Source: Chitinivibrionales bacterium
GTDB taxonomy: Bacteria; Fibrobacterota; Chitinivibrionia; Chitinivibrionales; FEN-1185
Assembly: GCA_035516255.1 (NCBI GenBank)
Contig: DATJAL010000027.1
Location: 65,312 to 129,311 of the forward strand
DNA: 64,000 bases
Direction: 5' to 3'
Shown here: piece after piece, positions 5,138 through 63,830 of the stretch
Layout: the number at the start of each line of letters is the position of its first letter
How positions within the stretch are numbered: the first letter of the stretch is position 1
Notes under the pieces: generated by a model
Told to the model about the DNA's origin: nothing
Databases searched by the model: none
Seen by the model: the letters and a program-made list of their open reading frames with translations, nothing else
Program-made: the position numbers and the translations under genes

Positions 5138-5311
5138 TTGGGCGTTCCTCCTTGCGGTCCACCCCTTCGGGTGCTTCTCCCTCGTCAGGGATTTCCAAGG
5201 GTCACAAGGGTCGTCGTCCTTCGGCTCGGGCTGCCACGGCCCGATGGCGGCGGACCGCCGGGGTCCGGGCAGCACCGCGCTCCCGCGCGGCCTCCAGTCT
5301 TGCCTAACGCG
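5138..5311 (+). repeat. Core intergenic repeat element (forward copy) carrying the 82-nt conserved block
   Basis: GGGCGTTCC at 5140-5148, 14 nt after the ahcY stop. Ends CCTCCAGTCTTGCCTAACGCG. Block 5158-5239 is identical (reverse complement) to 22641-22722 and 81/82 identical to 63721-63802. Confidence 0.8.
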
Positions 5312-20247: not shown

Positions 20248-20282
20248 CAGCGTCGCTTTGATGATTGAAACCCAAGGGAGCG

Positions 20283-20663
20283 CTAAGAACCGGCTCCCTT
20301 TTTCTTTTCCCTCTTTATTTCCCTCACCCTGAACCACAGCAGCAGCACCCCGGCCACCGCAAGCGTCATCTCGATCTCCATCGCCATGGCATGCATCGCC
20401 CGCATGGACGCCTTGCCGTATTGTACGGTCGTCGCGGCAAGGGCGTCCTTGAGAAACATCGCTTCGGCCGAATGAGGGACAACGTTCTTTTGCACCGCCG
20501 CGACGACCCCGTTCCATTTGTGCCGCACGTGCGCGGTTTTCCAGACAAACAGCGGCGCTAAAAGAATTGCGAGCAACAAGCAGGCGACGCCGAAGCAGGC
20601 CATATAATCGATCCTTTTTTCAGGCGGGCTTGCGGGACGCTGATCATGTGCCGTTATTTCCAT
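20283..20663 (-). CDS. Hypothetical small membrane protein (two predicted TM helices)
   Basis: Internal ATG (20663) of track ORF 20283..20792. Hydrophobic stretches MACFGVACLLLAILLAPLF and LAVAGVLLLWF. No recognisable family. Its 3' end overlaps a hairpin plus T-run that may be the GH9 terminator, so it may not be real. Confidence 0.35.
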   Translation of the reverse strand: MEITAHDQRPASPPEKRIDYMACFGVACLLLAILLAPLFVWKTAHVRHKWNGVVAAVQKNVVPHSAEAMFLKDALAATTVQYGKASMRAMHAMAMEIEMTLAVAGVLLLWFRVREIKREKKKGAGS

Positions 20664-21119
20664 GAGATGTGTCCTTGTTCGGGTGTCTGCGTTTCCTTCT
20701 TGACAATGTTTATTATATACCGGCGAAACTGGTGCGTCAACAGGATATTCACGTCCGGCGATTTTAGAGCGGCAGATTTCAGCAGTCACCAATCAGCGGT
20801 CAGCAAATCAAAAATGGGATTGCATATCTTGACGAATGCTACTTTCCCAAGCCCGTGAGTAAATATCCAATTGATTGAACGACCATAAGGCAATAGGTGA
20901 GAATAATCCAGTTGCGCCGGAAATGTTTGATCTTGATGAACATCTCCGCAAGTTTCATTAAAATAAAAGCTGAATGGGAGAAGTTAGGACAACAACAAGA
21001 GGATAGAATGAAGGACTAATTAGGAAATTCATCGGTAAGCAGTGTGAAAGTGACGTTTTATCTTTTAACCTCTTTCGGGAGATTGCTTCGTCGAGGACCC
21101 CTCGCAATGACATCATTAA

Positions 21120-21285
21120 TCATTTTCATTTTAACAAAGCGGAAAACAAAACCGGCAAAGTTTTTTATCTCCGGCGTTAGTTACTATGTTAACAAAGTTG
21201 CGTATAGCCCAATAAAAAAGCTACCTTCTTTCTAAACCAAACTCAACGTAGTGCTAGAAACACCACAAAGAAAGGAAGGTAGCTT
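21120..21285 (+). ncRNA. Candidate IS110 left-end non-coding (bridge/guide-type) RNA region
   Basis: About 165 nt of AT-rich non-coding DNA directly upstream of the IS110 recombinase gene, the position where IS110-subgroup elements encode their bridge RNA. Contains a duplicated TTAACAAAG (about 21134 and 21189) and a 14-bp stem. No covariance-model check was possible. Confidence 0.3.
21219..21284 (+). promoter_or_regulatory. Stem-loop that sequesters the transposase ribosome-binding site
   Basis: AGCTACCTTCTTTC (21219-21232) pairs with GAAAGgAAGGTAGCT (21270-21284): 10 + 4 bp with a 1-nt bulge and a 37-nt loop. The 3' arm contains the GGAAGG Shine-Dalgarno and ends 1 nt before ATG 21286. Confidence 0.5.
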
Positions 21286-22359
21286 ATGGACAAGAAAATG
21301 CAAGATTGGATCGTAAAGGGGAAAGAAGTTTTTGTTGGACTTGATGATGCGAAGAAGACGTGGCGTGTATGCGTACGTTCTGAAAAGATGGCAGTTCACG
21401 AAAGCAGTATGCCTGCCAACTACGACGTGTTGCGTGCCTATTTAAGACGCCGATATCCGGAGTGTACGATCAAGGTGATGTATGAGGCGGGATTCAGGGG
21501 CTTTAACCTGTACGACCGTTTGAGTGAAGATGGGATTGAGTGTGTCGTGTTGCCACCACACTTGATGTTGGAAGAGAAGGTAAACCGAGTAAAGACGGAT
21601 AGACGGGACGCATGGCGATTGGCGAAGATGCTTGAAGGCGAAGAGCATCTTCGCGGATGTCATGTACCTGATAAGGAACGGCGAGAGGACCGTCAGGCGT
21701 GCCGGACGCTGAATGCGGTGGAGAAGGAGATCAAGTCGACACGCAACCGGATTAGAAAGTTGCTGCAGTATCACGGTATCGAGACGGCGATACCGGAGGA
21801 GAAAGCATGGGGAAAGAGTGAATTTCGGAGCGTTGAGGAATTGTCGGTAGGTGTAGTGCTGCGGAAGCCGATCAAGGTGCTACTTTCACTTTTAGAGAAT
21901 TTGTGGACATATCAAATTGAGTTGCGTAAGGAGCTACTAGCATTAAGTAAGAATCCGCGATACCAGAGGGCATTTGCAATAGCAAGAGGTCTTCCTGGGA
22001 TAGGATGGCTGACGGCCATACGGCTGGTGCTGGAGCTTGGGGAAGATTTTACGAGATTCAGCACCGGCAAGTCGCTAGCAAATTTTCTTGGATTGACAGG
22101 AGGTGAACATTCTTCAGGGGAGACGGAACACAAAGGGAGAATAACCGGCCAGGGGCCGACGTTTGTCCGATCGTGGATGATAGAAAGCGCATGGGTAAGC
22201 ATCCGAAAGGACCCAGTATTGCGTGAGAAATTCGAAAAGGTGAGGAGAAACTCGGGGAGTAAGAAGAAGGCTATTGTTGCGGTGGCACGCAAGCTTGCAG
22301 TAAGGCTGTATGCGTGTATGGTTATGAATCAAGAATATCAAATAGGTCTTGTTGCGTAG
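21286..22359 (+). CDS. IS110-family (DEDD/RuvC-like) transposase
   Basis: 357 aa. VFVGLDDAKKTW (first D), VMYEAGFRGFNL, KTDRRDAWRLAKML, then the C-terminal Transposase_20-type LPGIGWLTAIRLVLELGEDFTRFSTGKSLANFLGLTGGEHSSGE...KGRITGQGPTFVRSWMIESAW. Confidence 0.93.
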   Translation: MDKKMQDWIVKGKEVFVGLDDAKKTWRVCVRSEKMAVHESSMPANYDVLRAYLRRRYPECTIKVMYEAGFRGFNLYDRLSEDGIECVVLPPHLMLEEKVNRVKTDRRDAWRLAKMLEGEEHLRGCHVPDKERREDRQACRTLNAVEKEIKSTRNRIRKLLQYHGIETAIPEEKAWGKSEFRSVEELSVGVVLRKPIKVLLSLLENLWTYQIELRKELLALSKNPRYQRAFAIARGLPGIGWLTAIRLVLELGEDFTRFSTGKSLANFLGLTGGEHSSGETEHKGRITGQGPTFVRSWMIESAWVSIRKDPVLREKFEKVRRNSGSKKKAIVAVARKLAVRLYACMVMNQEYQIGLVA

Positions 22360-22590
22360 TGGGACTGGAAAACAAATGGTCAATGAAGGCTTAGAAAAAA
22401 GAAATCGACAAGTAGTTCGGGAAAGTGGTGTACGACGTCAGTCCTACTGGTTAGAGAGCAATCTTTAACGAGCGTTAGAATTGTTGACACCATCTCCCAA
22501 TTTCACGAACAGCAAACTTGTGCGAAGAGCTCGGATAGCAGGTTGTTGAAATCTTTTTTCTGAAGGTAGATTTTTTTTATTGCCTTGTTA

Positions 22591-22766
22591 CATAGCAGGC
22601 AGGACTGGGGGCCGCGCCGGAGCGCGATGCTGCCCGGACACCGTGGCAGCCCGAGCCGAAGGACGACGACCCTTGTGACCCTTGGAAATCCCTGACGAGG
22701 GAGAAGCACCCGAAGGGGTGGACCGGAAGGACGGCCGACCCCGTGCCTTGAGCGCGGGGAACGCCC
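22591..22766 (-). repeat. Core intergenic repeat element (reverse copy) with the 82-nt block
   Basis: ..AGGCAGGACTGGGGGCCGCGCCGGAGCGCGATGCTGCCCGG..CCGTGGCAGCCCGAGCCGAAGG..GACCGGAAGGACGGCCGA, hairpin CCCCGTGC/GCGCGGGG (22739-22759), GAACGCCC. It starts 6 nt beyond the stop of the 22773 minus-strand ORF. Track ORFs 22503..22709 and 22577..22927 are translations of it. Confidence 0.8.
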
Positions 22767-22772
22767 GGATTA

Positions 22773-22994
22773 TTAATTTGAATTATCAAGATCCGGCGTC
22801 TCGGCCTTCTTCTCCAGATACTTTTTCCCCAAAATAAACGCGGCCACGACAAGCGCAACGGTGCCCAGCCGCCTGCCGAGCACGAACCGGGTCGCGGCGA
22901 TGCCCGTACCGAGAACAAGACGGACAATCCCGAACACGGCGCCCAGGCCTTTTTTAAGGATCCAGAAAGGCAGAAGAATGATTTTTCCCATCAT
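22773..22994 (-). CDS. Hypothetical small membrane protein
   Basis: The track ORF starts at TTG 23021. The ATG at 22994 (MMGKIILLPFWILKKGLGAVFG...) has AGGGG upstream. Two hydrophobic helices. Lies downstream of the cyclase gene on the same strand. Confidence 0.45.
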   Translation of the reverse strand: MMGKIILLPFWILKKGLGAVFGIVRLVLGTGIAATRFVLGRRLGTVALVVAAFILGKKYLEKKAETPDLDNSN

Positions 22995-23106
22995 AGCGAA
23001 CCCCTTTTTTGGTGTCGACAAGAATACGTTCCAGCCGCAAAACCATTGCCGGTTAAATCAATATACTATTCAGGCGGCGTCAAAACTTTTTTCATTGACG
23101 TTTCAT

Positions 23107-63609: not shown

Positions 63610-63830
63610 GGCAGCGCCCACGCGCTCGTGACAGTTTGATCGTCGCATGCATCCGGGGCCTTCAGCCCCCGGGCCCGTTTTGTTGGGGCGGTTCGCGAAC
63701 CGCCCCAACAAAACCTCGGGCCGCGGCAGCCCGAGCCGAAGGACGACGACCCTTGTGACCCTTGGAAATCCCTGACGAGGGAGAAGCACCCGAAGGGGTG
63801 GACCGTAAGAAGGGCCGCCGCGGAACGCCC
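63610..63830 (-). repeat. Core intergenic repeat element (reverse copy) with the 82-nt block and a divergent far end
   Basis: 63721-63802 is 81/82 identical to 22641-22722. Ends GGAACGCCC (63822-63830). The far half has a different hairpin, TTTTGTTGGGGCGGTTCGCGAACCGCCCCAACAAAA. Confidence 0.75.

Follow-up and report, generated by a model that had tools for sequence, protein, structure and literature searches.

A probable IS1111-type insertion sequence with a predicted bridge RNA downstream of its recombinase gene in an uncultured wetland Fibrobacterota genome

The closest described relatives of the locus reported here are insertion sequences (IS) of the IS110 family. In the account of IS621 given in PMC11208160, the left guides of the bridge RNA are identical to the top strand left of the core together with the core itself, and the right guides are complementary to the top strand right of the core, again with the core included. 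According to PMC11187229, elements of the IS1111 type have their longer non-coding region downstream of the gene, carry subterminal repeats, and have a junction promoter; within their seekRNA, the complement of the top strand lies 5' of the bottom-strand match, an order that is reversed in the IS110 type. Junction promoters have been described for both groups (PMC11208160, PMC11187229). The locus considered here lies in a stretch of 64,000 nucleotides from an uncultured Chitinivibrionales bacterium of the phylum Fibrobacterota (assembly GCA_035516255.1, contig DATJAL010000027.1, forward-strand positions 65,312 to 129,311). This whole stretch is referred to as the window, and all coordinates are counted from its first letter. 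From comparison with related sequences, positions 21181-22596 very probably represent one copy of an IS1111-type element of the IS110 family with its guide RNA in the right end.

The limits of the element were determined from a dispersed host repeat into which it is inserted and from related elements. As is characteristic of the IS110 family, long terminal inverted repeats are absent, and the insertion has taken place around a short core that is present at both junctions. With a slash marking the boundary, the left junction reads repeat-left...GCGTT-AG/TTACTATG and the right junction ...TTACATAGC/AG-GCAGGACTGG. Because AG is the sole overlap of the two junctions, the core is placed at 21179-21180 and 22597-22598, which leaves a body of 1416 bp with a left end (LE) of 105 nt (21181-21285) and a right end (RE) of 237 nt (22360-22596). 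An earlier sequence-only reading had taken 21120-21285 as a single 165-nt non-coding element end and had closed the element at 22560. However, the first base of the element is 21181; roughly a third of what had been proposed as its left end (21120-21180) is the left arm of the host repeat and lies outside it, and the proposed right limit cuts off the last 36 nt. The features on which this delimitation is based are as follows.

21181..22596, + strand: body of the insertion sequence, 1416 bp, set by homology to the sister element L021, the family end pattern and the repeat copies
21179..21180, + strand: left AG core copy, the overlap of the left (..GCGTTAG) and right (AGGCAGG..) junction matches to the repeat
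22597..22598, + strand: right AG core copy, set by the repeat copies, the L021 comparison and 39 related loci
21140..21178, + strand: left half of the target, host DNA, comprising the variable hairpin and GCGTT of the repeat
22599..22779, + strand: right part of the target, host repeat body GCAGGACTGG..., with 45 own-genome matches and a multi-hairpin consensus

When the genome was searched with 20900-22800, the one full-length match was the window itself, and the other 44 matches were short and confined to query positions 1697-1880 (the window from about 22596 rightwards). The element is therefore single-copy and adjoins a dispersed repeat. A BLAST search with the repeat returned 97 rows, of which about 70 copies are in register and give the consensus ...GCC-NN-GCGTT/AGGCAGGACTGGAGGCCGCGCTGGAGCGCGGTGCTGCCCGG with a variable hairpin in front. 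The window left of 21180 (aaaaccggcaaagttttttatctccggcgtt-AG) is shaped like the left arms of uninterrupted copies (C61:6804, C13:141085 and C29:5462), and the uninterrupted copies share aaaaccggcaa..ttatccggcgtt before AGGCAGG. The 20-mer core of the repeat occurs in 89 genome copies at no more than 3 mismatches, 48 of them preceded by GCGTT, and the 17-nt reconstructed target is found empty at 19 exact sites and at 46 with at most one mismatch.

Related elements agree with these ends. The sister element L021, from a same-genus uncultured Fibrobacterota genome, is 83% identical in amino acids and 79% in DNA and has the same architecture; its homology to the window stops at about 22599, beyond which a related but different flanking repeat follows. 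Relatives in metagenome contigs show the end pattern flank-AG-NNN-CTATG ... CATAG-N-AG-flank. Three deltaproteobacterial copies (L022-L024), whose own ends were set by mutual comparison, have an RE of about 455 nt. Across the 39 related loci for which both ends were determined, the body measures 1358-1758 bp, and the cores are equal at both junctions in 33 (31 AG, 1 TG and 1 GG). Four metagenome loci (L080, L081, L104 and L105) have AG as the left core and GG as the right, which could reflect insertion with a mismatched core or a later change. A left end at about 20867 had also been considered, as 20800-20866 resembles the left arms of some repeat copies; it was dropped once the relatives gave the family end pattern. 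A contig from a wetland DNA run (X3, depth 2.7) carries the window from 21174 onward without a difference behind another left flank, ...CACACCGC/GCGTTAG, and suggests a second insertion, into a different copy of the repeat. In the contigs of three wetland DNA runs, none joins 21180 to 22597 as an empty site would, although contigs say nothing about absence; joined element ends, as in a circle junction, were likewise not seen in these contigs, in which rare forms are invisible.

The non-coding right end appears from its covariation to encode a conserved structured RNA with two internal loops. A nucleotide profile search (nhmmer) with 22415-22600 gave 36 hits, distributed over 35 fetched loci, and these share one plan. 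Its 5' part reads TTCGGAA-n-GGTGTAyrACG, a variable stretch of about 10 nt, a TGTG...CACG hairpin, and a variable stretch of about 9 nt ending in AG; its 3' part reads TGTTGACACC-n-TTCCGA, ...CGAA, a variable stretch, a TGTGG-loop-CCACG hairpin, AATAGCAGG-yTGTAAAG, and a U-run. The structure was tested, and a covariance model (R2) was built, on a MAFFT alignment of 24 relatives from which the window and L021 were left out. The five-helix structure of 30 pairs is paired in 93.2% of 717 cells, compared with 34-49% when the partners are slid by 1-3 columns, and it contains 14 compensatory pairs against 6.7±1.7 in shuffles, a number that was reached by none of 500 shuffles. Although it had seen nothing of the window, R2 matches 22415-22566 on the + strand with 73.8 bits (E 1.2e-15), and this is its sole match in the 64 kb on both strands. 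Run against 98 sources (the window and 97 loci), it matches 67 times in 66 of them, and in each of the 65 loci oriented by the recombinase gene, match and gene share a strand. The bridge (seek) RNA is predicted to be about 140-150 nt long. A long-range stem ATCT..AGAT around the donor loop, which was seen in the minimum free energy (MFE) fold of the window, was rejected because it is not kept in L021.

22415..22566, + strand: predicted gene for the bridge/seek RNA, matched by the covariance model, with its 3' end probably at the U-run 22553-22558
22448..22470, + strand: inner hairpin P3 of the predicted target-binding loop (helix 3, 95.8% paired, 2 compensatory pairs)
22519..22533, + strand: inner hairpin P5 of the predicted donor-binding loop, with a U.U mismatch 22521/22531 in the window copy

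The two loops contain segments that correspond to the sequences on either side of the core, both in the host target and at the ends of the element. These segments are listed below.

22439..22448, + strand: putative right target guide (RTG), 5' of P3 in the target-binding loop; 22439-22447 pairs with right target (RT) positions +9 to +1 in 8 of 9
22472..22478, + strand: putative left target guide (LTG) GCGUUAG, 3' strand of the target-binding loop, equal to the left flank GCGTT plus the core AG in 7 of 7
22514..22518, + strand: putative right donor guide (RDG) AAACU on the 5' side of the donor-binding loop; it complements the core AG and the first bases of the left end
22535..22541, + strand: putative left donor guide (LDG) AUAGCAG in the donor-binding loop, equal to the last 5 nt of the right end plus the core AG

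Of the nine positions of the RTG stretch CAGUCCUAC, all but +2, where there is an A.C mismatch, complement the right flank, and GCGUUAG, being equal to the left flank and core, pairs with the bottom strand. The same relation holds between the loops and flanks of related elements. The longest match between loop strand A and the reverse complement of an element's own right flank has a mean of 7.87 (n=31; at least 7 in 28 of them), whereas the mean against the right flanks of other elements is 3.95 (n=924). For loop strand B and the left flank, the corresponding means are 5.39 for own flanks (n=28) and 3.25 for others (n=754). Column by column over the 39 loci, positions 22472-22476 equal left target (LT) positions -5 to -1 in 20, 22, 35, 32 and 36 loci, where about 10-12 would be expected, and the LTG 7-mer equals the flank at 5 or more of its 7 positions in 34; columns 22440-22446 are complementary to RT +7 to +1 in 23-29 loci (10-16 expected). 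The donor side follows the element's own termini. The variable LDG base 22539 is the last base of the element in 39/39 loci (28.4 expected), and the LDG variants ATAGTAG (L022), ATAGGAG (L023 and L024) and ATAGCGG (L075) match their own ends. Complementarity to the three bases with which the left end begins, right donor (RD) +3, +2 and +1, is found at columns 22514-22516 in 35, 28 and 30 loci. Between L021 and the window, two compensatory guide/flank changes can be read (CGGTCCA/TGGACCG versus CAGTCCT/AGGACTG). A contig from a second wetland sample (run X2) covers 22403-22524 with a variant of the guide RNA that has 12 differences, among them T22438C, A22440G and T22445A, which alter the right target guide in the way it is altered in L021; thus, by their sequences, two guide variants co-occur in these wetland habitats.

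These matches also bear on what the right-end structure is. It stands directly behind the open reading frame (ORF) and ends in U-runs, so it might be a mere 3' untranslated region (UTR), terminator or regulatory RNA, with the protein choosing the target. A terminator, however, would not carry two loop strands that track the element's own flanks and two more that track its own termini. Moreover, recombinases that are 50-60% identical sit in unrelated targets, each matching its own loops. This explanation is hardly probable at all.

The bridge RNA might instead be located in the left end, upstream of the recombinase, with the left-end stem-loop as a part of it. This is the arrangement that the sequence-only reading had favored; it rightly expected a bridge-type guide RNA with a readable target but put it in the wrong end. 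IS110-subgroup elements do carry the RNA upstream (PMC11208160), and a strong conserved hairpin does exist in the left end of the window element. However, the LE has just 105 nt, what precedes it at 21120-21180 being host DNA, and its hairpin has no variable internal loops and uses its 3' arm as the ribosome site. By the refuting conditions that the sequence-only reading had set for itself, the left end fails: neither of the two covariance models has a match in it, and part of the proposed region is host DNA. On the 39 loci, the right-end RNA gives own/cross match values of 5.9/4.61 for the left flank in the same sense and 7.62/4.61 for the right flank in the complementary sense, the two expected orientations, and no own-target excess in the two wrong ones. 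For the LE interior, own equals cross in all four orientations (4.36/4.31, 4.51/4.52, 4.28/4.33 and 4.15/4.33). The null result in the left end, set against the own-target excess in the right end, refutes the left-end location and supports the bridge RNA in the right end, and an upstream bridge RNA is accordingly judged highly improbable.

The spacing between the core and RTG varies. Over the 39 loci, the register is 0 in 23, +1 in 7 (the window among them), -1 in 7 and +2 in 2, and one and the same guide occurs at two sites (L059 and L060), once in register 0 and once in +1. An "ideal" 15-nt target written for the majority register had no exact match in the genome and was superseded by the +1 register with its 8/9 pairs. 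Some of this variation may stem from noise in the alignment, as the loop varies in length. If the offsets are real, the spacing would not be fixed in this clade, and the recombinase would tolerate a slipped register beside the cleavage site; this is regarded as a rather unlikely suggestion.

The left end contains a subterminal repeat, a conserved hairpin and the proposed -10 half of a junction promoter. Its features, and those of the right terminus, are given below.

21184..21195, + strand: left subterminal inverted repeat CTATGTTAACAA, which matches 22585-22595 in reverse complement but for one additional T
22580..22596, + strand: right terminus, with TTGCCT 22580-85 (proposed -35), the repeat TTGTTACATAG 22585-95 and the terminal C
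21218..21285, + strand: 5' UTR hairpin (MFE fold), whose 3' arm 21272-21285 holds the ribosome site GGAAGG and abuts the ATG

The subterminal repeats are imperfect, with 6+5 matching bases and one extra T, and they start 3 nt inside the left end and 1 nt inside the right end. Across the listed relatives, CTATG lies 3 nt inside the left end and CATAG near the right end, and their right ends read cTTGACttttATCATAG-C/AG. With the right end written as cTTGAC-N4-ATCATAG-N and the left end as NNN-C-TATGnT, joining of the two gives TTGACT, 17 nt and TATGnT. When the window ends are joined, TTGCCT (22580-85) is followed by a 17-nt spacer and TATGTT (21185-21190), and the two hexamers may be the -35 and -10 elements of a junction promoter. 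A promoter and terminator scan of 21000-22800 found one promoter-like site, located inside the RNA (22452-22481), and no more than in shuffles.

The strong left-end stem-loop pointed out in the sequence-only reading was borne out. Its helix has 14 bp (21218-21231 with 21272-21285) and ends at the ATG; the fold of the whole LE has a z-score of -1.81. The helix recurs in the listed 36 relatives with arms that are changed but still complementary (GAGGCTACC/GGTAGCCTC, GAGGTTGCC/GGCAACCTC, GAGACTGCC/GGCAGTCTC), and many of these relatives have the inner hairpin CGTGGTCGC..GCGCCACA; both comparisons were made by eye without a formal count. Most likely, the hairpin masks the ribosome site and so keeps translation of the recombinase low. 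Its inner GTGG..CCAC resembles P5 of the guide RNA, so the hairpin could also be an autoregulatory site that is bound by the recombinase. The duplicated 9-mer TTAACAAAG that had been noticed in the left end is present at 21131-21139 and 21189-21197 (2 in the window against 0.17 expected), but its first copy is in the host flank, outside the element, and the second falls in the left subterminal repeat. L021 does not keep it and reads TTAACGAG; no role was found for the 9-mer.

The gene between the two ends encodes a recombinase of the expected family.

21286..22359, + strand: recombinase gene, 357 aa, with a DEDD (RuvC-like) domain and a Tnp domain

The assignment of this 357-aa ORF to IS110 recombinases with DEDD and Transposase_20 domains, made before any database search, is confirmed by Pfam (PF01548 DEDD_Tnp_IS110, 1.2e-13; PF02371 Transposase_20, 1.5e-19) and by the NCBIfam model NF033542 "IS110 family RNA-guided transposase", which scores 180.6 bits against a cut-off of 140 and is covered over positions 1-342 of 343. 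In an alignment of eight sequences, the window protein and seven relatives of 42-83% identity, D21, E67, D105, D108, S276 and G278 are invariant. The IS621 catalytic set is given as D11/E60/D102/D105/S241 in PMC11208158, and the D-x-x-D spacing and Ser-Gly motif correspond to it in a mapping by motif rather than by structural alignment. A profile of the alignment matches ISCro4 chains (1e-15) and IS621 chains (6.2e-14) in the PDB (9t56, 8wt6), whereas the single protein gave no phmmer match there at 1e-3. At E<=1e-40, members of the clade occur in 13 of the phylum's 296 genomes, the window's own being counted. In metagenome contigs, a relative is encoded in 435 of 601 candidate stretches, from which 79 loci were kept. 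A tblastn search of plasmids found no close or informatively named relative; the best plasmid-borne ones are about 35% identical and are annotated simply as "IS110 family transposase". By this search and by comparison with ISEc21, no named IS is close to this recombinase.

Three properties of the locus are those of the IS1111 type: the RE of 237 nt is longer than the LE of 105 nt, subterminal inverted repeats are present (CTATGTTAACAA and TTGTTACATAG, where the type has about 7-17 bp), and RTG (22439-48) precedes LTG (22472-78). The placement in this group is thus founded on architecture, not on comparison with the IS1111 recombinase itself. The element is like the IS1111-group members ISEc11, ISPa11, ISKpn4 and ISPst6, as they are presented in PMC11187229, in its downstream non-coding region, subterminal repeats and split promoter, and it is like the group in targeting a repeated host sequence (PMC11187229). 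Unlike these named elements, it has an imperfect 6+5 bp repeat with an extra base, and its host is an uncultured member of the Fibrobacterota. With IS621 and ISCro4, as characterized in PMC11208160 and PMC11208158, it shares the DEDD and Ser catalytic residues and targets resembling repetitive extragenic palindromic (REP) sequences; as in their RNA, there are two loops, each with a left-identical and a right-complementary guide that includes the 2-nt core. It differs from these two in that the RNA is in the right end, the guide order within each loop is reversed, the core is AG and not CT, the subterminal repeats are longer, and only the Tnp domain aligns. ISEc21, which is of the IS110 type with an upstream seekRNA, belongs to the same protein family (24% identity over 119 C-terminal residues, E 2e-4), but its non-coding region is upstream, unlike that of the window element.

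Some results weigh against this picture as a whole. The PDB profile matches span the C-terminal domain only. A scan of 20500-23000 with the 4227 covariance models of Rfam 15 gave only three matches, all at chance level (E 1.6-9.6). Helix 4 (P4), which closes the donor loop, is the weakest of the five with 78.7% paired, and a crude test of own against cross stems for P4 was unconvincing (4.77 vs 4.33). Transcription, the ends of the RNA and its processing are inferred only, as none of the sequencing runs listed is of RNA. The comparison with an uninterrupted locus, suggested at the outset, found no orthologous empty site in five same-genus genomes, where the left- and right-flank genes lie on different contigs; since the flanks are not syntenic there, the empty site rests on paralogous copies of the repeat, which did supply the AG core and the target. 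Further points of this kind concern the window copy itself. The element is single-copy despite 19 exact empty targets. Its RTG match is one step further from the core than the majority register. RDG AAACU pairs with AG+TT, but at donor +3, where 35 of the 39 loci pair, it forms an A.A mismatch. In P5, one pair is UA in 24 of 26 rows, AU in one and UU in one, the last being the window, while L021 P5 keeps GTGC..GCAC.

It might be supposed from the single-copy state, the two mismatches and the off-majority register that the element is correctly identified but that the window copy is an immobile relic in decay, its guide RNA no longer functional; its -35 hexamer TTGCCT, weaker than TTGACT of the relatives, would fit as well. 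On the other hand, the ORF is full length with all invariant residues kept, and a sister at 79% DNA identity has the same architecture. The +1 register is common to 7 of 39 natural copies. The guides still fit the local repeat (LTG 7/7, RTG 8/9), and the differences between RTG and its counterpart in L021 follow the local repeat variant, an argument for recent selection for function. In addition, a second left junction with a different flank was found in another sample, on the one contig of depth 2.7. A relic is therefore considered unlikely, but it is the least improbable of the alternatives, and the reading as an apparently intact IS1111-type copy is preferred.

A mechanism can be proposed for such a copy. 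If it behaves like IS621 and ISEc11, the element would leave its site as a circle with its ends abutted across the AG core. The circle junction would create the promoter (TTGCCT, 17 nt, TATGTT), from which the recombinase and downstream RNA might be transcribed. The RNA would fold into a target-binding loop and a donor-binding loop, as its covariation indicates. The complex of RNA and recombinase would then pair with the circle junction and with GCGTT-AG-GCAGGACTG of the repeat of about 89 copies, a pairing suggested by covariation across elements, and strands would be exchanged at AG by the DEDD and Ser sites, as homology implies. The ends, the core, the conserved structure, the covariation of the guides with targets and own ends, and the catalytic residues are read from sequence comparison, while circle formation and present activity of the window copy are inferred.

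The surroundings of the element have features of their own. The target repeat exceeds a short REP. In the window, it is found at 22597-22779 (+), about 5140-5306 (-) and 63721-63817 (+), and further loci are L137-L145. The genome contains about 89 copies of its 5' module AGGCAGGACTGGAGGCCGCGCTGGAGCGCGGTGCTGCCCGG, and about 30 of the copies also carry a 100-nt core with 95-100% identity, between two variable hairpins and ending in GGGGAACGCCC. The consensus folds into a multi-hairpin structure with paired termini and 48 pairs, the core being too conserved for a covariation test. In three wetland runs, the contig depth over the repeat is 50-90 times that of the flanks. Rfam has nothing for the target repeat in the scan of 20500-23000. 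Two possible identities of the repeat are a non-autonomous mobile element and a multi-copy structured RNA. At 21075-21114, immediately to the left of the target, there is a GC-rich palindromic motif of 35-40 nt (..gcttcgtcgaggacccctcgcaatgac..) that is found at 89-94% identity at many places in three same-genus genomes (G062, G063 and G066) and in the window's own genome; from this distribution, it is a second small dispersed repeat. The region 20250-21080, left of the element, is AT-rich (GC 0.38-0.49 compared with about 0.6 around it), contains only short ORFs, and is without a homologue in the five same-genus genomes. Possibly, this is a further segment that was acquired or has decayed.

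The architecture described here has been on record for IS1111-type elements since 2024, so specialists would expect it, and the supplements of two 2024 papers may already list related elements or covariance models. With this locus, a well-delimited and apparently intact bridge-recombinase system of the IS1111 type is added from the genome of an uncultured wetland member of the Fibrobacterota. Together, about 65 related loci, the structural model and the guide-to-target map would allow the specificity of each element to be read from its sequence. The annotation of the element ends is corrected, and in this clade, the guide should be sought downstream of the gene. In practical terms, another compact pair of recombinase and RNA becomes available, along with a natural data set on register tolerance. 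If such tolerance proves true, it would bear on the off-target rules for bridge recombinases.

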